The notes: a model not told the origin generated them from the letters alone. A stretch of DNA of 32,000 nt from Candidatus Saccharimonadota bacterium (GCF_023585745.1 NZ_CP097762.1:570001-602000); one strand, 5' to 3'; counted from the stretch's first letter, positions 5,996 to 32,000 are shown. Numbers and translations: made by a program.

Positions 5996-7193
5996 ATAAG
6001 CATCCAAAAAAATAATTTATTGAAATATTAAAGTTAGTAATATCAAAAATTAATATATTATAAAAATAACCTATAATATAAATAATAAATAGCTTATAAG
6101 CGTTAAGTATATAAAATATTTAACAAAACTAAAATTCTAGAAGAATGCTTACTAATATATAAATTATTTAAAAACTCATTAATATTCAGTAATATATCGT
6201 AATATTTTTGTAAACACCACTACAGATAAAATTTATACAAAAAATAAAAAATTATTTTCAATAATGCAATATGCAAATATTTTTAATATTATTGAAATTA
6301 CATTATTAATGATATTTTTAATATTAAAATTTCTTATAAAAATTATACTTAACTTTATATATATAAAGTCTATAATTTATTATTTAATAAATTCATATTA
6401 GAAACTACATAATTTTTAATGAAACACATTATGTATACCATCTAATTAATATATTTAATAAAACTAACATCAAAACAATAAACACTATATTATATGTATT
6501 TATGAATCAAACAAAAAACATACTAACAGCAGTTTATAAAATATAATTATTTTATACAAAAAATTTTGTTCCATATATAAACTAATCTTTATATAGAAAA
6601 TTTAAGACAATTTTATATTAAAACAATAAAGAATAGATTATTACAAGAATCTGTATAAGTAGAATTTTTTCATTTTTTTATGATTTATGTCTGAATAAAT
6701 CATAATATATTTAAATCCAAATATAATTTTTATTAATGTATGATGAATAATAAAACTCAATAATTTTCTATAAAAATATCTTTTTAATTTATATAAATAC
6801 TATTATCAATAATACAAAACGTATCAATCCCTATTATTATACCATAACATGGTATTTAAGATATTACATATAACATAATAAGTAATTTAATAATATTAAT
6901 GATTATTTAATAATTTGAAGTGATTATGAAATATTTATTAAAGCATCATTATCGTAGTAATTAAAAAAATAATATTTTTAATATATAAAATTAATATAAT
7001 AAAAATTATTACAATCACTAAAATTAATATAAGCTACAAATATTAAGAAATTAAATATATATTTATTATGAATAAATATAATCTTATCTTTAATATAACT
7101 TATTAAAATACTGAGAATCCTGTATATAGTTAAAACCATATAATATTAAACTTAACGCAACATAATATTATCATGTTAGCAAATCATACGCAC

Positions 7194-7222
7194 TTGACTA
7201 TCTATACTGCTAATCTTATAAT
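7194..7222 (+). promoter_or_regulatory. Candidate sigma70 promoter upstream of tkt (TTGACT-N17-TATAAT)
   Basis: TTGACT lies at 7194-7199, followed by an exact 17-nt spacer and TATAAT at 7217-7222. This is about 220 bp upstream of the tkt ATG. TATAAT alone is common in this AT-rich DNA; the good -35 box at optimal spacing is what stands out. Confidence 0.35.
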
Positions 7223-7442
7223 ATAATTATTAAAATGAGTTTTATATTCAAATCAACAAAATATAAATATACAAGAATAATTATATTATAATAATTTGTT
7301 AAAAATGAAAATTTATTTTTTCAACAACATAATGAATATATTTTATCAAATAAAAATAAACTATAATAAATTTTAAACATTACATTTCAAATATTAAAAA
7401 ACAAATTGATTTATACTAATTCAAGTTTTGGAATCATTGAGT

Positions 7443-9470: not shown

Positions 9471-9611
9471 AAAAGATAAAAAAATCTAATAAATTCAGAA
9501 ATTTTTTAAATTACCAAAAAAATAATTTTTCAATTAATTAATAAAAATTGTTATATATATATTGTCATCTCTAATAACTTTTATTATTAGACTGCGCTGA
9601 GGAATTATCTG

Positions 9612-10948: not shown

Positions 10949-11278
10949 TTAATCAGTATTAATTAAGCACGATGAAATATCACATGTATTATCTATAGAT
11001 AATATTGAAGGAGGGTATATATTCAAGCGTTTTCCTAATGTTTTATCAGATAACTCAGATGCAGTATTATTGATTAACGGAATGGTATAATCACTATTTA
11101 TATTCATAGTATCCGGCAAAAAATTTATATCTTTTGGTATCCTGAGATATGATAAAGGTTCAGTGTTCAAATACCAAAAATCTGGATCAAATTGATAATC
11201 CTTACCCTTATTATATATCCCAAAAGAACACGCTGACATTAAAATTAAAATAAATAACATTTCTAAAAATATTAACAT
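10949..11278 (-). CDS. bamC: Truncated outer-membrane assembly lipoprotein BamC (N-terminal segment only)
   Basis: It lies immediately downstream of dapA (24-bp gap), as bamC/nlpB does in E. coli. AAGGA lies 10 nt upstream of the ATG. It has a lipobox LMSAC after a hydrophobic leader. YL..PL..L..P.(n).DY.IP..N.(n).GK.L.I.PP aligns with E. coli BamC [48 protein letters not shown]. It is 109 aa versus about 344 aa in E. coli. Confidence 0.6.
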   Translation of the reverse strand: [109 protein letters not shown]

Positions 11279-12214: not shown

Positions 12215-12963
12215 GCACGATCATCTCCATTAATTAATAAATAAATAATAAAAAAAATTATTGCTCTATTTGTTAAATAATCAAGTAATATTGATTTTTA
12301 ATAAATAAAATTTAATATAACATCAATATTAAATAGAAATAATATTACACTTATATTGATATTATTTTATCAGAATACATACACTTAGGTAAATAAGTGT
12401 ATATAAACAAAATTGTATAATTAACTATATTACATTAATTAAAAATTATTTTCATTACATTTTTATTTATTAAGTAAATTATTTTATGTCAATAACATTA
12501 AATATATTCATTTATTTTTATGTAATAAATTTTTATAATTTAATAGTGCATATAATCTCTGTATTGTATAGTTACATAAACATAAAAATTATGTATTTGT
12601 TAATAAATAATAATAAAATATGAAATTTTACCATATAAAATATTAATAACATTTTTTCAAAATTATTTTTGTAAGTATAAAATTGATAATTTTTAATATT
12701 AAAATATTTGATTTTTAATATCTTTATTATGCATGTAAATTAGCAGTACAAAACAATTTATTAAAATAAAAATTTAATATTTCAACATATACATATGATC
12801 GAATTTACATCACAATAAAATTTTCTATCAAATGCAACAGAATAAAATAAATAATAACAAGTTATATGCATAAAATAATTATACATCAAAAACTTAAATA
12901 CATTATTGTTACTAAACATTCAATTTTTACGATACATTTATTAATAAAATCAATACGTTATTA

Positions 12964-13590: not shown

Positions 13591-14009
13591 GTAAATTTGA
13601 TTACCTATAACTATGAATAGAAATACACAATCAATATTTTTATTTAAAATTTAAAGTATTCAGCATATACACAACCCTTATATATTTATAATTAATATAA
13701 TATAAACATTAAGTAATAAGAAAAGCATAACTTTTATTCAAAATAAAATATAAACAATATATTATAATTTATAAAAAATTTTTCTATTTGTTTTAATAGA
13801 AATTAACTTTTAAAGAATTATATTTTTAAAAAAGATGATAAATAAAATTTAAATAAGTTAAATTTTTTTCTAAAAAACATACAAAAATATTTTTAAAATA
13901 TATTTCCATAAAACTCTTTTATTTAAATTAAAATATTGATTATCTGCATTCATTATATGCATAAAATACAAATATTTTATATATAATCTTTATAATTTAA
14001 CAACTTAGT

Positions 14010-14040
14010 AATGTATATTATTATTATAATAATATACATT
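14010..14040. repeat. 31-bp perfect palindrome (15-bp arms plus 1 central nt)
   Basis: aatgtatattattat-t-ataataatatacatt; all 15 pairs were checked by hand and pairing fails at 14009/14041. It sits about 290 nt downstream of the ureG stop on the minus-strand transcript. Confidence 0.9.
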
Positions 14041-14327
14041 GTATTTATATGATAAATATTGTAAGACTAATTCATTTCAACTATATAAACACTACACATA
14101 CAAATATATAGTCTTAATACGATAATAATTTTATAGAAATAAAATCTCATTTATAAAAAAATTAAATTCAACACATATTGACGTCACTAACTTTAACAAT
14201 ATTAAATGTAATTAATTTACAAAATAAATCTGTACATTTCTTATGTATATTAATTTTCTAAAATACACTAAATTTTTAAAAATAAAACTTGTATAAAATA
14301 AAATATAAAATTTTTATATATTAATAC

Positions 14328-21074: not shown

Positions 21075-22553
21075 TTAATAAAATATCGGATAATTAGGTG
21101 ATTCTTTTGTAATTATTACATCATGTACATGACTTTCTTTCATACCAGATGAACTAATACGAACAAACTTGGCATGTGTTCTTAAATCATTAATAGTTCG
21201 ACAACCAGTTAAACCCATACAAGAGCGTAATCCACCTATTAATTGATGAATAATTATTTCTAATTTTCCTTTGTAAGGCACTCTACCTTCAATACCTTCT
21301 GGAACTAACTTACATACAGAATCTCTTTGTTGAAAATATCTATCTGCAGATCCTTGAGACATAGCTGCTAATGAACCCATGCCCCGATAAGTCTTAAATG
21401 ATCTACCTTGATAAAATTCTATATCTCCAGGAGATTCTTCAGTTCCAGCCAGTAATGAGCCAATCATTACGCAATGTGCACCAGCTACAATAGCTTTAGC
21501 GATATCTCCTGAAAATCTAATTCCACCGTCTGCAATAATCGGAATATTAACATTCTTCAACGCGCTTGAAATATCAGAAATAGCTGTAATTTGAGGAATT
21601 CCTACACCCGTTACAATACGTGTCGTACAAATAGAACCCGGTCCTATTCCTACTTTTACTGCATTAACACCAGAATCTACTAATGCCATAGCTCCTAATT
21701 TAGTAACCACATTACCTCCAATAATAGGCAAATTAGGGTATATAGCGCGAATGTTTCTAATACATTTTAATACTCTATCCGAATGACCATGGGAAGAATC
21801 AATTAATAAAACATCTAAACCAGCCTCTACTAATTTAGTAACACGTTCTTCATAATCACAATCTATTCCAATAGCAGCTCCCACTCGTAATCTTCCATAA
21901 TTATCTTTACACGCATATGGTTTACGTTTTGCTTTTTCAAAATCTTTAGCTGTAATCATACCTTTTAAACAAAATTCAGAATCAACTAATAACACTTTTT
22001 CTACTCTTTTATTATGCATTTTACTTAAAACTATTTCTCGACTTTCCTTTTCTAAAACTGTCACTAAACGCTCTTTAGGTGTCATAACAGAAAACACATA
22101 ATCTGATAAATTACTAGCAAATCTAACATCTCGGCTTGTAATAATCCCCACTAAATTCTTTCCATTAATTACTACTGGATATCCTCCAAAACCGTTGCGA
22201 ACAGTAAGTTCTTTAACTTGTAACAAAGTCATATTTGGAGTAACACATTGCGGATTAGCAACCACTCCACTTTCATAACGTTTAACACGGTAAACTTCAT
22301 TAACTTGCTGCTCCAATGACATGTTTTTATGAATAAAACCTAATCCCCCTTCTTGAGCTAAAGCGATAGCTAAAGCCGACTCCGTAACTGTATCCATAGC
22401 TGAAGAAACAATAGGAATATTTAAAAACACAGAACTAGTTATAGAACTTTTCAAAATAGTCTCAGTAGGTAACACTCTTGAATAAGCAGGCACAATTAAA
22501 ACATCATCAAAAGTCAAAGCTTCCTTCAAAACATTAAACATTCTATTATCCAT
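21075..22553 (-). CDS. guaB: IMP dehydrogenase
   Basis: [13 protein letters not shown], a CBS-pair region, the catalytic loop [28 protein letters not shown] and C-terminal [11 protein letters not shown]. Possible starts are GTG 22556, ATG 22553 and ATG 22541; 22541 matches the E. coli N-terminal length best. Confidence 0.97.
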
Positions 22554-22939
22554 CACGTAAATCTAATATTTAATTGTATATATAACATGTTATATATGGT
22601 TGACCCCCGCGCACCTAACGGTTCCATTTCTAGCATAATTTTTATAATTAATCAAGTTTAAAGTATGAGATTTATGAGGATTTGTATTACTAATTAAAAT
22701 TAGTATATTTATTAGAGACTAATAGTTTTAATAGGTTTCGAAAGTTATAAATAGATTTTATTTTAATTAGTATTAGTTTATTATGTTTATTTTGATGTAT
22801 ATAATTAATATTAAATTATTACTTGTATGTTATACATAACAGTATTGATATTAGATTTTTGTGAGTTAAATATTTTGATTGATATTTAAAATTATTTTAG
22901 ATGATATGTGAAATTATTTGTTATATTTGAGTGGCGTAA
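22554..22939. other. Strand-composition switch point, a candidate replication origin region
   Basis: The + strand changes from C>G, A>T (left) to G>C, T>A (right) within this spacer. Hand counts are given in the findings. This is an inference from skew polarity only; I recognised no DnaA box within one mismatch of TTATNCACA. Confidence 0.45.
22578..22597. repeat. 20-bp perfect palindrome next to the guaB start
   Basis: atatataaca/tgttatatat; 10 pairs were checked by hand. It directly abuts the GC island at 22598-22625. Confidence 0.8.
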
Positions 22940-24505
22940 ATGAAAAAAATTACTATTTTACCTGAATCGTGTGGTTTTCTAGAACGTAAATCATCTGTGG
23001 ATGTGGTATTAGTTGGAGCGGGTATTATGAGTATAACTTTTGGAATGTTTTTGACTTACCTTGAGCCAACTTGGAGTATTCATATATATGAACGTCTTGA
23101 TGGTTCAGCTCAGGAAAGTACTAACATTTGGAATAATGCTGGAACTGGTCATGCAGCTTTTTGTGAGTTGAATTATACGCCGTATGGTAAGGATGGAGTT
23201 GTTAATATTGAAAAAGCGATTGCTATTAATGAAGCGTTTGAGATGTCACTTCAATTTTGGGCTTTTTTGGTAGAAAATGAAGTTATTCATTATCCAGGTT
23301 CGTTTATTAATAATGTGCCACATATGAGTTTTGTTTGGAATAAAGAAAATGTTGATTTTTTAAAACGACGTTTTCAAGCATTGCAAAATAATATTTTATT
23401 TAGTGGAATGATGTATTCTGAAGATTTAGAACAAATTTATAAATGGGCTCCTCTTATTATGAATGGACGTAGCATGTCTCAGAAAGTAGCTGCTACTTTT
23501 ATGCAGATAGGGACAGATATTAATTTTGGTGAACTTACTAAACAGATGTTTAGTGCGTTAAAAAACAATATAAATTGTAGTGTATATTTACAACATGATG
23601 TAATTTCGTTGCATTGTAATAGTGATGCTACTTGGAGGGTGCATATACTAGATAAGCGGTGTAGACAAAAAAAAGATATTTGTGCGAGTTATGTTTTTAT
23701 AGGCGCTGGGGGTAGGGCATTAAATTTATTACAAACTTCTAGAATTCCGGAGATTTTTAAATATGCTGGATTTCCGGTAGGTGGAAAATTTTTAGTTACT
23801 AAAAATCCTGCAATTGTTTCACAGCATTTTGCTAAAGTATATGGTCAAGCATCCATGCATGCACCGCCAATGTCAGTGCCACATATGGATACTAGAATTT
23901 TGAATGGTAAAAAATTTTTATTATTTGGTCCATTTGCTACTTTTAGCAGTAAGTTTTTAAAAAGTGGTTCATGGTTAGATTTGTTTAATTCATTAAATAG
24001 GCATAATTTATTTTCGATTCTACAAGTAGGTATAGATAATTTTGAGCTAATTAAGTACTTAATTAATCAATTAGTAATGTCAGATAAAAAGCGTATTGCT
24101 AAACTAAAAGAATATTATCCTAAAGCTAATTCATCAGATTGGATCTTAGTTACAGCAGGACAGCGCGTTCAGATTATAAAGACAAATGATGACAGTGATG
24201 AAAAAAGAGGGGTATTACAGTTTGGGACAGAAGTAGTTAGTTCTCATAACGGTACTTTATCAGGATTACTAGGTGCTTCTCCTGGAGCGTCTACTGTAGT
24301 TGCTATAGTATTAGAAATATTACAGAAAATGTTTAGAGGTAAAATGGATAGTATAGCGTGGAAAGAAAAGCTCATGGATATGATACCTACTTACAAGTGT
24401 AAGTTAAGTCATGATATTGTATTGGTAAATAAAATTAGACGGTACACTTGTGATAGGTTGGGGTTAAAGTATTTAGAAGCTGTTTCTCATAAAAAATGCA
24501 GTTAG
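22940..24505 (+). CDS. mqo: Malate:quinone oxidoreductase
   Basis: 521 aa with the FAD fold DVVLVGAGIMS, then QES.N.WNNAGTGH.A..ELNYTP, VPHMSFVW, FVFIGAGG.AL.LLQ, GFPVGG.FLV, APPMSVPH.DTR, GQRVQIIK and LLGASPGAST. It is colinear with recalled E. coli Mqo. Confidence 0.93.
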   Translation: MKKITILPESCGFLERKSSVDVVLVGAGIMSITFGMFLTYLEPTWSIHIYERLDGSAQESTNIWNNAGTGHAAFCELNYTPYGKDGVVNIEKAIAINEAFEMSLQFWAFLVENEVIHYPGSFINNVPHMSFVWNKENVDFLKRRFQALQNNILFSGMMYSEDLEQIYKWAPLIMNGRSMSQKVAATFMQIGTDINFGELTKQMFSALKNNINCSVYLQHDVISLHCNSDATWRVHILDKRCRQKKDICASYVFIGAGGRALNLLQTSRIPEIFKYAGFPVGGKFLVTKNPAIVSQHFAKVYGQASMHAPPMSVPHMDTRILNGKKFLLFGPFATFSSKFLKSGSWLDLFNSLNRHNLFSILQVGIDNFELIKYLINQLVMSDKKRIAKLKEYYPKANSSDWILVTAGQRVQIIKTNDDSDEKRGVLQFGTEVVSSHNGTLSGLLGASPGASTVVAIVLEILQKMFRGKMDSIAWKEKLMDMIPTYKCKLSHDIVLVNKIRRYTCDRLGLKYLEAVSHKKCS

Positions 24506-24554
24506 ATTTTATGTATTTTATTTATTATTTAAATATATTAATAGATTGAAGGTG

Positions 24555-26027
24555 TTATTTTTTATTTAGCAGTGATTTAGCGGTATTTTTGAAATATATA
24601 TGCAATAGAATTCCAGTTATTTTAAGTGTACGGTAAAAAAAATTTTTTAAATATTGTTGATAGTGTTTAGGAAGTTTGTTGGCATGAGGACCGTGAATAA
24701 TGAAAGTTAATGGATTATTTTTTCCAATATGAATGTGTTTTAATTTTATTTGTTTACTCTTATTAAAAGGTGGGGGAGGAACTTTAGTAGTAGCAGCGTA
24801 TAAAATTGATATGAGTTTTGTTGTAGTGATATTTTTTATAGAATTTAGATGTGTGTTATGTATTGATTGGAAGAGCTTTTTTATTCCTGTTCCATATAAG
24901 GCTGAAATAAAATATATTTTTGTGTAGTGAATAAAATGTATTTTATTATATAGTGATTGTTTGATTGTATGTTGTGAAGTTTTAGAAATTTTATCCCATT
25001 TGTTTATTGCGATTATTAGTGCTGCACTATTTTTTAGTATAAAATGTAACAACTGTAAATCTTTATTGGAAATTCCCATACTTATATCATTTAAAAATAA
25101 TACAATTTGTGCAGTTTTTATAATTTGGTATGTTTTAAGTGTATAAATTTTTTCTGTAGTATTGCGATTTTTTTGTATTCCGGCAGTGTCAATTAATATA
25201 TATTTTTGCTTATTATAAATAATAGGTATGCTGGTACTATTTCTAGTAGTACCGGGTGCGCTATCAGCAATTACACGATTAGTTTTTAAAATATAATTAA
25301 TTAAGGTAGATTTACCAGAATTGGGACATCCTACAATAGCTAGGGTTACAGCGTTTTTTTCTGTTTTTTTTATTATGGGTAATTCCGTATGTAATTTGGT
25401 ACAAATAATTTTATTATTTGTTGATTTAATTTTTTTAGTATTATTTTTACTATGCAAAATTTTTTTATGTATATGATTTAGCAGATTATTTTTATTATGA
25501 CCGATTTTATTTTTAGCAATACATAAGAATAATTGTTTTATTAGGTTTTTTATTCCATAACCATGCATTGCAGATATAAACATTATATGTTTTGTGTAGT
25601 AAAAAGGATATTCCCACAGGGAATTATTTATTAAGTTTTTGACGTTATCAATTTTATTGATAATAAAAAATATATGTTTTTTTTCTGTTTTTACTAAATT
25701 TTTTATTATTTCATTGTCTGAAGTAGATTGATGAGCGCGTTTGTCTGTAATATACAATAGAATATCAGATTCTTTTATAGCTAAATTCGTCTGATAAAAA
25801 ATGCTACTTTGAATGGTTTCGTTTTTATTATTGTGTAATTCATCAATTCCTCCAGTATCAATTAGAATAGATTTAAAGTTTTTACATTGAAAGAAACCAT
25901 ACTGTCTGTCCCGTGTCGACCCCGGGTAGGGAGAAATTAAAGAATCGTTTTTTTGCGTTAGTTTATTAAATAGAGTAGATTTTCCTACATTTTTCCTCCC
26001 AATTAAGGCAATAATGGGCATTGTCAT
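24555..26027 (-). CDS. der: Ribosome-associated GTPase Der (EngA), with two tandem GTPase domains
   Basis: Two G-domains are present. The first has GRKNVGKST / DTGG / NKID and the second has GCPNSGKST / DTAG / NKWD. A Lys/Asn-rich linker lies between them. An alternative ATG lies at 26021. Confidence 0.95.
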   Translation of the reverse strand: MTMPIIALIGRKNVGKSTLFNKLTQKNDSLISPYPGSTRDRQYGFFQCKNFKSILIDTGGIDELHNNKNETIQSSIFYQTNLAIKESDILLYITDKRAHQSTSDNEIIKNLVKTEKKHIFFIINKIDNVKNLINNSLWEYPFYYTKHIMFISAMHGYGIKNLIKQLFLCIAKNKIGHNKNNLLNHIHKKILHSKNNTKKIKSTNNKIICTKLHTELPIIKKTEKNAVTLAIVGCPNSGKSTLINYILKTNRVIADSAPGTTRNSTSIPIIYNKQKYILIDTAGIQKNRNTTEKIYTLKTYQIIKTAQIVLFLNDISMGISNKDLQLLHFILKNSAALIIAINKWDKISKTSQHTIKQSLYNKIHFIHYTKIYFISALYGTGIKKLFQSIHNTHLNSIKNITTTKLISILYAATTKVPPPPFNKSKQIKLKHIHIGKNNPLTFIIHGPHANKLPKHYQQYLKNFFYRTLKITGILLHIYFKNTAKSLLNKK

Positions 26028-26241
26028 TTTAGTTTTTAATATTTTATGTTGTTAATTTATAAGTGTTCTTATTAAGACATAGTACTATAGTAGTTATTAT
26101 AGCTCAATATTATAATATACATAATAGTTGGTAATATTTGTTTCGTATATTTTATAATGTATGGTGTGTTTTATTTTATATATATTGTATATGTATAATA
26201 TTTTTGTATAAATTTTATCGGTAATATATTATTTTTATGTG

Positions 26242-27534
26242 TTATATATTTAAGATGTATTTTAATTTCGTATTAATTTCATGCAATTTCAGTATTTCTT
26301 CTGCATTTGTTTGTAAGTTTTTTAATATAATAGTTTTTTTTAAAAAATTTTCTTCATTTAATATTAGTAAAATTTTTGTTTTATTTTTATAAGCGAGATG
26401 TATTTGTTTTTTTATACTGTCTTTTCTGTGGTGTACTATTAATCGAATAGATGGGAATTCTGATCGAATATTTTCAGATATTAAAATTGCATGTTTTTGT
26501 ATATCGAAATCTGAAGAATTAATTAAATATACATCGTTATGGATATTTTTATTAAAAATTTCATGATTAATTGCTTGCATTAATAATATTATGCGTTCTA
26601 TTCCCATAGAAAAACCTATGGCGGGTACCGATGGTCCCCCGAGTTCTTGTATTAGTGTATCGTAACGGCCACCTGCACAAATGGTTTTTTTTTTGTTATT
26701 ATGATCAGTAGTAGTAATCCATTCGAAGACTGTCTTATTGTAATAATCTAAACCACGTACTAAATATGGATTAATTGTATATGGTATTTTTGTCGCATCT
26801 AATAACTGACATAATTTAGAAAAATGAGTGTGTGAATCGTTATCTAAATAATCATTTATCATTGGTGCTGCATGTAATAGTTCTTTAGTTGCGTGATTTT
26901 TTGTATCTAAGATACGTAGTGGGTTGGAATGTAGTCGGCGTAAAGCGTAATGATCTAATTTTTTTAAATGTTTTTCTAAAAAAGATATTAATTTTTTACG
27001 ATAATTCGTCCTAGATTGTATGGAACCTATTGAATTTATTTCTAAAGAGATATTTTTGTTGATGCCTAATTTTTCCCAACAACGCGCAGTAATCAGAATT
27101 AACTCAGCATCTATATTTGGTCCAGTACATCCAAAAGCTTCTGCGCTGAATTGGTGAAATTGTCTATGACGACCTTTTTGTGGTCTTTCATAACGAAACA
27201 TTGGTCCATAGTACCATAGACGTTGTTCTTGATTATTATAAAATAATCCGTGTTCAATTCCAGCCCTAACACATCCCGACGTGCCTTCTGGACGTAGTGT
27301 TATGCTGTTTTCATTACGATCTTTAAAATTATACATTTCTTTTTCTACTACATCGGTAATTTCTCCAATAGATCGTTGAAATAAATTTGTATTTTCTACG
27401 ATAGGAAATCGTATTTCTTTATATCCGTAATCGTGTACAATAGATTTTAGAGTATGTTCTATATATTGCCAAATTATAGTGTCTTTTGGTAAGATATCGT
27501 GCATACCTCGGATAGATTGGATACTTTTATTCAT
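26242..27534 (-). CDS. hisS: Histidine--tRNA ligase
   Basis: 430 aa: IRGMHDILP, the motif 2 region LWY.GPMFRYERPQKGR.RQFHQ, and class II motif 3 with the His-binding GGRYD. It follows der-hisS-ispG synteny. Confidence 0.96.
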   Translation of the reverse strand: MNKSIQSIRGMHDILPKDTIIWQYIEHTLKSIVHDYGYKEIRFPIVENTNLFQRSIGEITDVVEKEMYNFKDRNENSITLRPEGTSGCVRAGIEHGLFYNNQEQRLWYYGPMFRYERPQKGRHRQFHQFSAEAFGCTGPNIDAELILITARCWEKLGINKNISLEINSIGSIQSRTNYRKKLISFLEKHLKKLDHYALRRLHSNPLRILDTKNHATKELLHAAPMINDYLDNDSHTHFSKLCQLLDATKIPYTINPYLVRGLDYYNKTVFEWITTTDHNNKKKTICAGGRYDTLIQELGGPSVPAIGFSMGIERIILLMQAINHEIFNKNIHNDVYLINSSDFDIQKHAILISENIRSEFPSIRLIVHHRKDSIKKQIHLAYKNKTKILLILNEENFLKKTIILKNLQTNAEEILKLHEINTKLKYILNI

Positions 27535-27590
27535 ACTTGTATTATTAAATAAGATTGGTTATTTGTTTGTTATAGTAAAAATTTTTTATT

Positions 27591-28676
27591 CTAAAATTTA
27601 GATTTTTTTCTAATTCGACGTTCTAATTCTTCCACAATCCTGTCGTTATCACAGCGTGTTTTTTGTCGAATCCCATCTTCATATATACCGCTCTTTTTTT
27701 TTGCTCCGGCAACTCCGATAGTTGATTTTATCGCTTCACCTGGACCGTTAACTACGCAACCAATCACAGAGACATTCATGGGAGTAGTAATATCACTAAT
27801 TTTTTCTTCTAGAGAATTTGCTACTTTAATTACATCAAATTCTTGTCGAGCGCATCCTGGGCAAGCTATAATGTTTACACCTTGCTGGCGTAAATTTAAT
27901 GTCCTTAAAATGTCAAATGCTACTTTTACCTCTTCTACGGGATCTGCGGCCAAAGAAATGCGCATTGTATCTCCAATTCCTTCATTTAACAAAAATCCTA
28001 ATGTTATAGCAGATTTTACTGTTCCGTTACGGAATGTTCCAGATTCAGTTAGCCCTATATGTAGCGGTTGATCTATTTTTTTTGCTAGTTCACGATATGC
28101 TTGTATTGTAATTAGAGCATCAGAGGATTTAATACTAACTTTAAATTGATGAAAATTTAGTTTTTCTAAAATGTTTACATGTTTCATTGCAGATTCTAAT
28201 AAAATATTTGCTGTTATTTTACCATTGTATTTTTTTTGCAAATCATGTTCAAGAGATCCAGAATTTACACCGATACGGATAGATATATTTTTGTCTTGTG
28301 CACAGTGTACTACAGATTTAATTCTTTCAATATTTCCAATATTTCCAGGATTGATTCGTAAGCAATCTGCTCCATATTCTGCAGCTTTTAATGCAATACG
28401 ATAATCAAAATGAATATCTGCTACTAATGGAACATCAGTAATTTTTTGTTTAATTATTTTAAACGTTTCTGCAGCGTCAATGGTGGGTATGGATATTCGT
28501 ATAATGTCTACTCCTGCTTTTTTTAAAGATTGGATTTGTTGAATAGTTGCTGCTATATCTGTAGTACGAGTATTCACCATAGATTGTATTGAGATTGGTG
28601 CGTTATCTCCAATTGGGACGTTGCCTACATAGATTCGTGTAGATTTTCTACGTATAATGTTTGATAAATTTTTCAT
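27591..28676 (-). CDS. ispG: 4-hydroxy-3-methylbut-2-enyl diphosphate synthase (flavodoxin)
   Basis: 361 aa: [31 protein letters not shown], and the Fe-S cysteines in ACPGCAR and [10 protein letters not shown]. Confidence 0.96.
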
Positions 28677-28911
28677 ATTTCTTCCTTTAGATTGTTGAGA
28701 AAAATTTAATATACATGAGTTATATATTGTATAATTTTTTATTTACTATGTTCTAAATTATAGAATATTATAAGTAATATGCTGTTAAATATAGAACATA
28801 CTATATTTATAATATGTTTGTAATGATATGTTATAATTTTTTATAGTTTGTGTTTATTTAATTTATATAATAAAGTTTTATTAGCGTAGTATTTACTATT
28901 AATAAAATTAA

Positions 28912-30042
28912 TTAAGTAATATTGTTTACTGCAATATTGTTAGTGTAATTTGTACAGTTAGAAATATTAAAATTTATACGATTTGTTATTGTTCCTGTTA
29001 ATTGTCCACAAGCAGCATTGATATCTGCTCCTCTAGTTTTTCTGATGATAGTGTTAATTTTGTACTGTAATAAAATTTGTAAGAATTTATGTATACGAAT
29101 ACGTGAGCTACAGGTATATGGAGTATTTGGAATTGGATTCCATGGTATTAAATTAATTTTACATGGAATTCCTTTAAGTTTTTTTGCTAATTGATGAGCA
29201 TGTGATATATCATCATTAACATGATTTAATAGAATATATTCTATTGTTATTCGTCTGTGATTAGATTTAAAGTGTTTTGAGTATTTATTTACTGAATTTA
29301 ATATATTACTAATATTATATTTATTATTAATTGGCATAATTTTGCTTCTAATATGATCATTTGGAGCATGTAGTGATATAGCTATTGGTATATCTACTAT
29401 ATCTGTTAGTTTTTCTATGCCAGGGACTATCCCAGCAGTTGATAAAGTAATACGTCTTTTTGAAATTCCAAAGCCTAATTTATCTAATATAATCTTTATA
29501 GCTGATGTGACATTTTTAATATTTAGGAGTGGTTCTCCCATTCCCATAAATACAATATTAGTAATTGGAGAATATTTATTATGTGTAATATTTTTATTTA
29601 GTTGAATAGTTTTAGATATTTGCCATACTTGACCCACAATTTCTGATACTTTCAAATTTCTATTAAATCCTTGTTGTGCAGTTGCACAGAAACTACATCC
29701 TACAGCGCATCCAATTTGTGATGATATACATAATGTAGTTCTATAGATTTCAGGAATATAAATTGTTTCTATTTCTTGTGTATCAACTTGCATAGTCCAT
29801 TTTATTGTGCCATCTAAAGATATTTGTTTTTTTTTTATTATTGGAGCGCGTATTTCAGAGATTTTTGCTAATTTTTTTTTTAAATTTATACTGAGATTTG
29901 TCATTTGATTGAAATCATTGCAGTAATAATGATAAATCCATTTCATTATTTGATATCCTCGAAAAGGTTTTTCACCGATTTTTTGGAAAAAGTTTAATAA
30001 TTCTTCTCGGTTCATATTCAGAAGATTTATTTTTGTGTTCAT
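28912..30042 (-). CDS. rlmN: 23S rRNA m2A2503 / tRNA m2A37 radical-SAM methyltransferase
   Basis: KINLL.....EL..FF...GEKPFR..Q.MKW.YH, the radical-SAM CxxxCxxC motif (GCAVGCSFCAT), MGMGEPL and the C-terminal catalytic Cys context AACGQL. The ATG at 30042 (MNTKINLL) fits the E. coli alignment. The track's GTG at 30087 adds 15 non-homologous residues. Confidence 0.94.
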   Translation of the reverse strand: MNTKINLLNMNREELLNFFQKIGEKPFRGYQIMKWIYHYYCNDFNQMTNLSINLKKKLAKISEIRAPIIKKKQISLDGTIKWTMQVDTQEIETIYIPEIYRTTLCISSQIGCAVGCSFCATAQQGFNRNLKVSEIVGQVWQISKTIQLNKNITHNKYSPITNIVFMGMGEPLLNIKNVTSAIKIILDKLGFGISKRRITLSTAGIVPGIEKLTDIVDIPIAISLHAPNDHIRSKIMPINNKYNISNILNSVNKYSKHFKSNHRRITIEYILLNHVNDDISHAHQLAKKLKGIPCKINLIPWNPIPNTPYTCSSRIRIHKFLQILLQYKINTIIRKTRGADINAACGQLTGTITNRINFNISNCTNYTNNIAVNNIT

Positions 30043-30290
30043 TAATGAGTCCCTAATTATTAATTTATTGTATATAAACATTAGCACACATACTTTATGT
30101 ACTAAAGTAGCATGGTTTTATATTTTTAAAAAATATAAATTTACTTGTTATAAAAGGTTAATTCATATTAATATATGATGTGTGCTATTGATTAATTTTA
30201 ATTTTTATGAACAGTTTATTTATTAATACGTAATATATATGTTTTTACAATTTGAGATATTTTAATTTAGTATAATTAAGTTGTTATTTT

Positions 30291-30698
30291 TTAAAAAAAA
30301 TAAGAAATTTCACGTATGGCGGATTTTTTAGAATCAGAACCATGAATAGCATTTTTAGTGCAATTATAGCCATAATCAGATCGGATAGTACCCGATAAAG
30401 CAACAGTTGGGTCAGTAGCTCCCATGATTTCTCGATTTTTTTTTATAGCTTGATAACCCTTTAATATTTGTATAAATATAGGACCAGAAATCATAAAATT
30501 TATTAATTCGTTAAAAAAGAATTTATTTTGATGTGCTGCATAAAATTCGGATGCTTGTATTGAGGTAAGTTGTAGTATTTTGGCATTTACTATCATTAAA
30601 CCTGAAGTTTCCAATCTATTAATTATAGCTCCGATAACATTTTTAGCTACTGCGTCAGGTTTGATAATAGACAATGTATGTTCTGTTTTAATAGACAT
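30291..30698 (-). CDS. ndk: Nucleoside diphosphate kinase
   Basis: 135 aa: T.SIIKPDAVAKNVIG.I..R.E, the active-site His in NAIHGSDS, and a C-terminal REI.YFF. Confidence 0.96.
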   Translation of the reverse strand: MSIKTEHTLSIIKPDAVAKNVIGAIINRLETSGLMIVNAKILQLTSIQASEFYAAHQNKFFFNELINFMISGPIFIQILKGYQAIKKNREIMGATDPTVALSGTIRSDYGYNCTKNAIHGSDSKKSAIREISYFF

Positions 30699-30922
30699 AA
30701 ATATTCCTATTGTTGATTAACATAGCGTGCAGTTTACTTGTTTAAGTTTTGTTAAATTTTAAATAAACAAAGTATTTTTATTTTTTTGATTTTTAAGATA
30801 TCTGTGCTTATTAATAGTATATATCTTATGTGTTTATTTTAATTTTGTTAAAGACAAAGACTATATGTTCATTGTGTTTTGGTTATATATTCAACACTAT
30901 ATATTAGTGTTGGTATTTATTA

Positions 30923-32000
30923 TTAATATAATATATTAGTCATTGTATTTAATTTCAATATAGTATTGATGATATGCTGAATAGCGTATTTTATCTCTGC
31001 TTCAGTAGTAAATCTACCAAAAGAAAATCGGATGGAATTATATGCAGTTTCATCTTTTTTGCCTAAAGCTTTTAATACGTGGGATGGATTTAATTCTCCA
31101 GATGCACAAGAAGCACCAGAAGATAAGGCAAAATCTTTTAATACTGTCATGAGTGTTTCTCCATCTATATTGTTAAAACTGATATTTAGTATCGTGTCAA
31201 CACTGTATTTTAGATCTCCATTAATTGATATACCTTCGATATGTTTTAGTCCTTTCCACAAATTATTTTTTAGTTTTTTTAATTGTATCATTTCGGTTGT
31301 CATTGTTTCTTGGGCTAAACGGTACGCTTCACCCATTCCAACGATTTGATGCACGGGGAGAGTTCCGGAACGTATATTATTTTCTTGACCACCTCCATGT
31401 ATTTGTGTAGTAAGATAAATTTTTGGGTCTCTATGTTTTCTAATATATAATCCACCGATTCCTTTTGGTCCATATATTTTATGGCTATTAAAAGACATTA
31501 AATCTACCGGCAGAATAGATAAATCAATGTGTAATTTCCCAACACTTTGTGTTGCATCTACGTGAAAAATTATATCATGTAGTCGACATAATTTACCAAT
31601 GCTTGCAATATCCTGTATAATGCCAATTTCGTTATTTACATGCATAATAGATACTAAAATAGTATCATCTTGTAGTAGTTTACTGATTTGATTTAAATTT
31701 ATTAATCCATTAGATTGTGGTATGATATAAGTAACTTTAAATCCGTTGCTTTCAAGGTATTTACAAGTATTTAAAACTGCTTTATGTTCTGTTGCGCTTG
31801 TAATAATATGTTTGCCTTTTTTTTGATAATTTTGACTTATTCCTTTTATAGCAAGATTTATTGACTCAGTAGCGCCAGATGTAAAAATAATTTCGCATGA
31901 CTCAGCCCCTATTAAGTTAGCGATTTGTTTGCGTGCTATATTTATTGCTGCTTCTGCTTTCCAGCCATAGTAATGGGAACGAGCCGATGGATTTCCAAAT
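30923..32000 (-). CDS. iscS: Cysteine desulfurase IscS (5' end lies beyond the window)
   Basis: The track starts at an internal Met (31645), but the frame stays open to position 32000. My reverse-complement translation there reads [31 protein letters not shown]...[14 protein letters not shown]...ITS.TEHKAVL. The rest carries the PLP-Lys context [12 protein letters not shown] and the catalytic Cys in SSGASCASG. About 45 N-terminal codons are missing from the window. Confidence 0.93.

Follow-up and report, generated by a model that had tools for sequence, protein, structure and literature searches.

Strand composition reverses abruptly between the divergent genes guaB and mqo of Candidatus Blochmannia ocreatus, a carpenter-ant endosymbiont, and the best reading of this reversal is that the guaB-mqo spacer is the skew-defined origin of the chromosome, in the sense of the site from which forks diverge. 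We give a probability of about 70% to the proposal that forks diverged from this spacer over long evolutionary time in B. ocreatus and that it is a relocated origin devoid of DnaA boxes; the ancestral oriC position, by mnmG, is ~137 kb away in B. pennsylvanicus coordinates. The B. ocreatus DNA analyzed is a stretch of 32 kb, hereafter called the window, whose Mqo matches that of B. ocreatus with 100% identity; further right, the material consists of B. ocreatus proteins only. An origin at this place had been proposed in a first-pass annotation of the window, and this interpretation is supported here by the polarity of the reversal, the opposite skews of genes carried by the same strand, the conservation of gene order and the lack of a DnaA-box cluster. 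The argument turns on the following elements of the window:

1-22556, left flank (ptsI, cysAWTP, tktA, dapE, dapA, upp, ureGFCBAD, guaAB): plus strand of lagging type, C>G and A>T
21075-22556, minus strand: guaB (IMP dehydrogenase; NCBIfam TIGR01302, E 3.8e-181), third-position GC skew of the plus strand -0.53
22557-22939: guaB-mqo intergenic spacer, 383 bp, ~80% A+T, candidate fork-divergence region
22940-24505, plus strand: mqo (malate:quinone oxidoreductase; NCBIfam NF003605, E 1.6e-231), third-position GC skew +0.71
22940-32000, right flank (mqo, der, hisS, ispG, rlmN, ndk, iscS): plus strand of leading type, G>C and T>A

Skew reversal in the B. ocreatus window

The hand counts of the first-pass annotation proved exact, both inside minus-strand coding sequences (G=15 and C=27 at 21121-21240; G=26 and C=7 at 24601-24720) and in non-coding DNA (A=32, T=21, G=3 and C=4 at 6001-6060; A=19, T=30, G=8 and C=3 at 26041-26100). 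Over sliding windows, GC skew passes from about -0.25/-0.30 (windows over 19-22.5 kb) to +0.26/+0.42 (22.5-25.5 kb), and the sign of AT skew switches at the same place. The third-position GC skew of the plus strand is negative in all 18 open reading frames (ORFs) of the left flank, including the plus-strand genes ptsI, tktA and dapE, and positive in all seven ORFs of the right flank, six of which are carried by the minus strand. When minus-strand genes are pooled, it amounts to -0.41 on the left and +0.31 on the right (95% confidence interval (CI) +0.22 to +0.40). Intergenic DNA is C>G in the eight left stretches (8/8) and G>C in the spacer and in the four right ones (4/4). A likelihood scan with a single change-point, run over the entire window independently for GC and AT with 500 permutations as null, placed the GC change-point at 22656 (log-likelihood ratio (LLR) 108.9) and the AT change-point at 22541 (LLR 126.4), the permutation maximum being 10.2. 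The former is inside the spacer, the latter is 16 bp outside, in the first codons of guaB, and the cumulative G-C minimum of the window is at 22653. The reversal of GC and AT is sharp, of full amplitude and completed within ~100 bp.

Leading strands carry G>C and T>A, and a change from C>G to G>C read 5' to 3' has the polarity of an origin. Both changes predicted for an origin are found here in this direction, GC skew going from C>G to G>C and AT skew from A>T to T>A. In B. floridanus, the guaB-mqo locus lies 86 kb left of the skew-fitted origin and its plus strand is C>G; therefore, the G>C rule for leading strands is valid in this genus. Furthermore, since genes of one strand have opposite skews on the two sides of the spacer, coding-strand bias is excluded, as had been argued from the hand counts. 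The claim that protein composition flips in the same way also holds with an ortholog-controlled index applied to six Blochmannia: Der, HisS, RlmN and Ndk of B. ocreatus are the most A/C-codon-rich and its Mqo is the most G/T-rich, whereas GuaA, GuaB and UreC show no matching trend.

These data bear directly on causes other than replication, such as transcription-coupled mutation or selection on codon or amino-acid usage. An effect of the gene strand is indeed visible, roughly +/-0.15-0.2 at third positions (in the left flank, about -0.1 to -0.3 for plus-strand genes and about -0.47 for minus-strand genes), and in B. pennsylvanicus and B. vicinus the value of der consistently exceeds those of the genes around it. 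However, genes of the same strand are opposite in sign on the two sides, intergenic DNA flips too, and the orthologues of B. floridanus and B. turneri do not flip although they have the same orientation. Such an explanation is close to refuted.

Gene order and extent of the reversed state

The left flank successively carries ptsI (plus strand), cysA, cysW, cysT and cysP (minus), tktA and dapE (plus), a BamC-like remnant (minus) and then, all on the minus strand, dapA, upp, ureG, ureF, ureC, ureB, ureA, ureD, guaA and guaB. The right flank carries mqo (plus) followed by der, hisS, ispG, rlmN, ndk and iscS (all minus), guaB and mqo being the first genes of their respective flanks and mutually divergent. 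We take the order from ptsI to iscS to be colinear with that of Escherichia coli. The same order has been published for B. obliquus, B. turneri and Camponotus-associated strains in a three-column ortholog table (PMC4389277). Order and orientation at the junction are also identical in eight genomes overall, namely those of B. pennsylvanicus, B. turneri, B. floridanus, two B. vicinus assemblies, the C. nipponensis symbiont and two pennsylvanicus-like genomes. Because both flanks keep the ancestral gene order in all Blochmannia compared, a simple inversion is excluded, and the earlier argument that inversion of one flank fails to account for the flip stands.

A less simple history would make the junction a rearrangement boundary, the right block having gained a lagging-type composition while inverted or located elsewhere; its later return to the ancestral order would have left a break in skew that has nothing to do with initiation. 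Blochmannia are known to undergo inversions, some of them recurrent at hotspots (PMC4389277), and one B. vicinus assembly has an inverted triplication precisely at the spacer. However, since B. obliquus, B. turneri, B. floridanus and the clade of B. ocreatus all share this order and orientation, two exactly reciprocal events would be needed, and the junction lies outside every block whose order varies among the three columns of the ortholog table. Furthermore, the reversed state runs through at least 31 kb of unchanged synteny, and neither the graded amplitude of the step nor the ~133-kb shift of the B. pennsylvanicus terminus, both presented below, is expected from a local inversion. We consider this history very unlikely.

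The DNA of B. vicinus and of pennsylvanicus-like genomes was examined to 31 kb past mqo. Over this distance, third positions are positive in B. vicinus and near zero to positive in the pennsylvanicus-like genomes, almost all genes are G>=C out to +31 kb, and all the intergenic stretches of these relatives up to the rRNA operon are G>C. The first-pass annotation had considered that a return to C>G just beyond the window would count against an origin; in these relatives there is no such return within at least 31 kb, and no return to the left-flank value of -0.5 within 31 kb past mqo. In B. ocreatus itself, GlyA (glyA being ~10 kb past the end of mqo by synteny) is the most A/C-codon-rich GlyA tabulated, and PpnK (ppnK being ~20 kb past the end of mqo by synteny) is G/T-rich like that of the flipped lineages; the composition of these two proteins indicates that the reversed state continues beyond the window. 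Since the right flank shows the full mirrored amplitude, the straightforward reading is that at least the visible 9.5 kb of B. ocreatus have been replicated rightward over the long term.

The rRNA operon (rrs, a tRNA gene and rrl), in which the stretch examined in relatives comes to its end, is on the minus strand, ~25 kb right of the spacer, in the pennsylvanicus-like genome CP097759.1 (L088 15223-20287). The transfer-messenger RNA gene of this genome is at L088 12421-12808, on the plus strand.

A step graded among Blochmannia lineages

The lineages were compared by the pooled third-position GC skew of their minus-strand genes on each side of the spacer:

B. turneri: left -0.67, right -0.56
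B. floridanus: left -0.76, right -0.73
C. nipponensis symbiont: left -0.62, right -0.37
B. pennsylvanicus: left -0.49, right +0.09
B. vicinus: left -0.48, right +0.28
B. ocreatus: left -0.41, right +0.31

The amplitude of the step is thus +0.25 in the C. nipponensis symbiont, +0.57 in B. pennsylvanicus, +0.76 in B. vicinus and +0.72 in B. ocreatus. A blind change-point scan fell in the orthologous spacer in 5/5 genomes of this group (B. pennsylvanicus, two assemblies labelled B. vicinus (CP097763.1 and CP125213.1), the C. nipponensis symbiont and B. ocreatus, i.e., four named lineages), with LLRs of 33-140. B. turneri and B. floridanus have no step at the spacer, and the scan placed their change-point elsewhere with LLRs of only 6-8. 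A neighbour-joining tree built on left-flank proteins, which are not affected by the flip, was (turneri,(floridanus,(ocreatus,(vicinus,(pennsylvanicus,nipponensis))))) with 99-100% bootstrap, the four step-bearing lineages forming one clade with 100% bootstrap. Since these lineages group in a single well-supported clade, one gain in the ancestor of B. ocreatus, B. vicinus, B. pennsylvanicus and the C. nipponensis symbiont would be the simplest history.

Proteins show the same gradation. The amino-acid composition of Der, HisS, RlmN and Ndk grades in the same order of lineages, and that of Mqo in the opposite sense. The Mqo sequences of public assemblies fall into two composition classes, and the G/T-rich one consists of B. 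ocreatus, B. pennsylvanicus, both B. vicinus assemblies, two other Camponotus symbionts, one read-archive assembly and the C. nipponensis symbiont, the latter with an intermediate value.

Two readings of this grading are left as alternatives: the lineages could stand at different distances from a new equilibrium after one switch, or both sites (the spacer and one near mnmG) could be used in lineage-specific proportions. Identity at four-fold sites is 0.63-0.69 within the clade and ~0.50 to B. ocreatus, for ~0.36 expected at random; these sites being unsaturated, skew does not tell a mixed use of origins apart from an equilibration that is still incomplete. The right-flank skews of B. pennsylvanicus and of the C. 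nipponensis symbiont are ~0.45 apart despite 69% identity at four-fold sites, which indicates different regimes since their split.

The third-position skew of der reaches +0.28 to +0.61 in the B. pennsylvanicus and B. vicinus genomes (der at L001 11641-13056, L084 11653-13077, L085 19507-20922 and L086 19299-20720), and genes further right show ~0 to +0.35. One idea is that this excess is due to read-through from the convergent gene mqo.

Terminus position and the mnmG step in B. pennsylvanicus

Morton & Morton 2007 (PMC2099444) fitted two skew breakpoints at four-fold sites, which in B. pennsylvanicus NC_007292 are 791,425 and 262,280, the latter with a CI of 256,595-280,481 (supplementary file 1). 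These authors list this species among the unequal-arm chromosomes, one arm representing 33%, and tentatively ascribe the imbalance to gene loss; only two breakpoints were fitted, and the guaB-mqo step was not identified. In this genome, the change-point of the spacer is at 654,274 (L001 position 9619 plus an offset of 644,655). Its antipode, 258,447, is 3.8 kb from the fitted terminus and within its CI, and, counted from the spacer, one arm is 399.7 kb long and the other 392.0 kb. For the mnmG breakpoint, the antipode is 395,598, at 133 kb from the fitted terminus. A purely local anomaly of the guaB-mqo region would not predict a terminus at the antipode of the spacer. Blochmannia are devoid of dif/Xer, and tus is absent from the Blochmannia ortholog table (PMC4389277). 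Therefore, forks would simply meet opposite the active origin, which explains a fitted terminus of B. pennsylvanicus opposite the spacer. A spacer origin thus accounts for the unequal replication arms reported for this species.

B. pennsylvanicus displays two origin-type steps, at the spacer and near mnmG, separated by a nearly skew-free interval of 137 kb. The mnmG step agrees with the work of Williams & Wernegreen (PMC3017870, PMC3268670), and the published accounts consulted place the B. pennsylvanicus origin at mnmG, without mention of the guaB-mqo site. The weak skew of the 137-kb interval probably explains why the guaB-mqo step went unreported, and the usual placing of the origin at mnmG may need revision.

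The two steps raise the question of whether two initiation sites, the spacer and one near mnmG, have alternated within the population or succeeded each other over evolution. The amplitude of the step would then reflect the share of cycles or of time during which the 137-kb interval is replicated rightward, this share being the highest in B. ocreatus, where the spacer would not necessarily be the sole origin. The gradation of the step and of amino-acid composition over sister lineages, the steps of B. pennsylvanicus at both the spacer and 791,425, and the divergence in right-flank skew between B. pennsylvanicus and the C. nipponensis symbiont in spite of their 69% identity at four-fold sites are in favour of this view. 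However, the right flank of B. ocreatus is at full reversed amplitude (+0.31 for minus-strand genes, +0.71 for mqo), and these values mirror those of the left flank (-0.41 for minus-strand genes, ~-0.1 to -0.3 for plus-strand ones), leaving little leftward replication; moreover, skew alone does not tell mixed use from unfinished equilibration. We regard two such sites as rather unlikely. A broader picture, which is possible but still doubtful, is that of a clade with two competing initiation sites, the guaB-mqo promoter spacer and the old oriC neighbourhood by mnmG, on one chromosome devoid of DnaA boxes, their relative use drifting among host lineages. The C. nipponensis symbiont would rely mostly on mnmG, and B. 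ocreatus almost exclusively on guaB-mqo. In that case, the clade would show how origins compete and replace each other in bacteria under natural conditions, and the sole rRNA operon found in the examined stretch, as well as the RNA-polymerase and ribosomal-protein operons, would have been left head-on to replication.

Anatomy of the spacer

The first-pass annotation had found no recognizable DnaA box in the spacer, and a scan for TTWTNCACA agrees. Allowing at most one mismatch, the window contains 115 matches versus 133 expected, i.e., at or below chance, and the spacer contains two one-mismatch matches and no exact one. Nor does the spacer have the neighbourhood of a DnaA-oriC, its neighbours being guaB and mqo, with mnmG ~130 entries away in the ortholog table. 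Because both the box cluster and this neighbourhood are lacking, the guaB-mqo spacer is not a DnaA-type oriC. The dnaA gene is reported missing from four Camponotus-associated genomes, B. turneri being the only Blochmannia in which it is intact (PMC4389277); by analogy with these four genomes, B. ocreatus would also be devoid of dnaA. The spacer reaches 78-93% A+T over 22657-22896, and other intergenic DNA of this genome is equally rich or richer (for example, ~14% G+C over 6001-7000). Three features of the spacer are located near guaB:

22578-22597, beside the guaB start: perfect 20-bp palindrome ATATATAACA/TGTTATATAT, arms 100% complementary with 0 nt between
22598-22625, C-rich on the plus strand: G+C-rich island GGTTGACCCCCGCGCACCTAACGG, 40-bp windows down to 45% A+T
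22627-22655, minus strand: putative guaB promoter TTGATT-N17-TAGAAA, its hexamers being in the conserved block described below

Alignment of the orthologous spacers (MAFFT), a check suggested in the first-pass annotation, did reveal one block conserved within the clade, but this block is explained by the guaB promoter. It is the sole one conserved clade-wide, ...TAATTAATCAAG... (~22627-22660), and is common to B. ocreatus, B. pennsylvanicus, B. vicinus and the C. nipponensis symbiont. Judging from its hexamers, it is probably the guaB promoter; the B. pennsylvanicus counterpart reads TTGATT-N17-TAAAAT, and the GC change-point at 22656 adjoins the -35 hexamer of the B. ocreatus one. A consensus scan of the spacer for promoters and terminators gave a count not above that of shuffled sequences, and TTGATT-N17-TAGAAA was not among its matches. 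No credible homology was found outside the clade when the spacer was aligned to those of B. floridanus and B. turneri, and no Rfam family matches in the spacer.

The palindrome and the island both lie in the interval that separates the guaB start from the conserved promoter-like block. Only B. pennsylvanicus shares a part of the island, CACCTAACG (MAFFT), and the island is probably part of the guaB leader or discriminator. The palindrome could fold into a hairpin in the guaB leader, or form a cruciform. Unrelated perfect palindromes occur at the same relative position in both B. vicinus assemblies (L084 8044-8095 and L090 ~9535-9556).

In the B. vicinus assembly CP097763.1 (L084 8044-10300), the spacer and the 5' end of mqo are present in three copies in forward-inverted-forward arrangement. 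The arms of this triplication are 750-760 nt long and 100% identical, and its hinge, on which the skew change-point lands, is a natural palindrome whose arms measure 26 nt. The second assembly labelled B. vicinus, CP125213.1 (L090), has a single 572-bp spacer, which is 73% identical to that of CP097763.1, and is devoid of triplication; the triplication was therefore rejected as an origin-linked structure. It may be an artefact of assembly, or else a palindromic amplification that arose recently in one strain.

Proposed mechanism and points weighing against a relocated origin

We propose that the spacer would have turned into an initiation site in the common ancestor of B. ocreatus, B. vicinus, B. 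pennsylvanicus and the C. nipponensis symbiont, after the presumed loss of dnaA. The descendant lineages would use it to a differing extent, or would have used it for a differing time, hence the graded step, and forks would meet opposite the active origin, neither dif/Xer nor tus being present in the gene lists. With low confidence, we suggest that negative supercoiling between the promoters of guaB and mqo, which point away from each other, might help strands to open in this A+T-rich spacer, and that priming might occur from a transcript (R-loop). DnaB would then have to be loaded without help from DnaA, DnaC or PriA. Opening between divergent promoters is proposed because guaB and mqo are transcribed divergently, like yibN and hldD, which flank the putative origin of other Blochmannia (their orientation being deduced from operon order), and R-loop priming because rnhA and polA are retained in the ortholog table. 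With forks leaving the spacer, guaB would be co-directional with the leftward fork and mqo with the rightward one.

Several points weigh against this relocation. Another origin-type step exists near mnmG (791,425) in B. pennsylvanicus, whose right-flank skew is near zero rather than fully reversed; in this species at least, the spacer is not (yet) the sole determinant of skew. The B. ocreatus DNA directly visible right of the flip is limited to 9.5 kb. Skew is a record of history and not of present activity, and it may be out of equilibrium. The spacer shows no origin-specific sequence element, its only conserved block being that of the guaB promoter. Finally, as the first-pass annotation had pointed out, the six minus-strand genes of the right flank would face the rightward fork: der, hisS, ispG, rlmN, ndk and iscS would be head-on to replication, an unusual arrangement. 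By synteny, the rRNA operon would be head-on too, and the order of the ortholog table suggests that this is probably also the case of rpoBC, rplKAJL, tuf, fusA, rpsG and rpsL. Overall, exclusive use of the spacer as origin is suggested for B. ocreatus and established for no genome.

Comparison with known systems

A relocated putative origin was previously reported in the yibN-hldD spacer of B. vafer and B. floridanus (Williams & Wernegreen 2010, PMC3017870; 2012, PMC3268670). The guaB-mqo spacer resembles it in many respects: it belongs to the same genus, it displays an intergenic GC-skew shift in a genome that would lack dnaA, it carries no DnaA-box cluster, it lies upstream of mnmG on the same replichore, and the genes located between the old and new positions switch strand. 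The type of evidence used by these authors is found here, with an intergenic skew shift away from mnmG, unchanged synteny relative to lineages without the shift and a presumed dnaA-less status. However, the two spacers differ in their distance from mnmG (~32 kb for yibN-hldD, ~137 kb for guaB-mqo, i.e., four times further) and in the clade concerned, B. floridanus having no step at guaB-mqo. Furthermore, the guaB-mqo step is graded among lineages, and its strand-switched interval includes the rRNA operon and, by gene order, rpoBC and ribosomal-protein operons, with a more drastic effect on gene orientation.

As in the gammaproteobacterial oriC (mnmG/gidA-mioC), skew changes sign in A+T-rich intergenic DNA with outward transcription on both sides. 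In E. coli, transcription of gidA away from oriC helps opening. Unlike a canonical oriC, the guaB-mqo spacer has no DnaA-box cluster and is not beside mnmG, dnaA or dnaN. Initiation without a DnaA-oriC, a possible dependence on transcription or R-loops, and variable sites would be shared with the R-loop-primed oriK replication of E. coli rnhA mutants and with DnaA-independent cyanobacteria (Ohbayashi et al. 2020, PMC7198777). The cyanobacteria discussed by these authors are free-living, and the form of the GC-skew profile is linked there to dependence on DnaA; the guaB-mqo step is sharp. Constitutive stable DNA replication of E. coli requires RecA and PriA. In contrast, both proteins are absent from the Blochmannia ortholog table (PMC4389277).

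Blochmannia is among the few groups that include both dnaA-plus and dnaA-minus relatives, and bears on how replication starts in bacteria devoid of DnaA. The guaB-mqo spacer would represent a second, independent relocation in this genus, which is much larger (~137 kb), precisely mapped and found at differing strength in several lineages, and it suggests that the position of the origin is evolutionarily labile once DnaA is gone. The candidate origin is narrowed to ~400 bp between divergent promoters. Since essential and highly expressed genes would have turned head-on, these lineages provide a set for the study of replication-transcription conflict and of protein evolution driven by strand switch.

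Other features of the window

Most ORFs of the window were named from NCBIfam, which agrees with the gene names given in the first-pass annotation. The names of ureF, ureB, ureA and ureD were assigned by synteny, the syntenic products of relatives matching Pfam urease families; ureF and ureD had no NCBIfam match at E 1e-10.

Several stretches of the left flank point to gene decay. Between cysP and tktA, a 1.4-kb non-coding stretch (6008-7427), with ~14% G+C over 6001-7000, has 41-58 stops in each of the six frames. Other Blochmannia carry talA at this place in the ortholog table, and this gene appears to have been lost or eroded past recognition in B. ocreatus. Intergenic stretches of ~740 bp are found on either side of upp (12215-12963 and 13591-14327), at positions where the ortholog table has bcp and BPEN_539 for B. 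pennsylvanicus; they probably correspond to additional gene losses. A 109-aa ORF on the minus strand (10949-11278) has a weak BamC match (E 2.8e-6, far under the family cut-off) and occupies the position of BPEN_535 or of the 'hyp_pseudo' of relatives; it is probably a truncated bamC remnant.

Lastly, the plus strand at 17322-17604 matches the Rfam family 5_ureB_sRNA, a Helicobacter antisense RNA, with 74 bits, above the gathering score. This match runs antisense to the 5' part of ureC and may merely reflect the conservation of the urease coding sequence.

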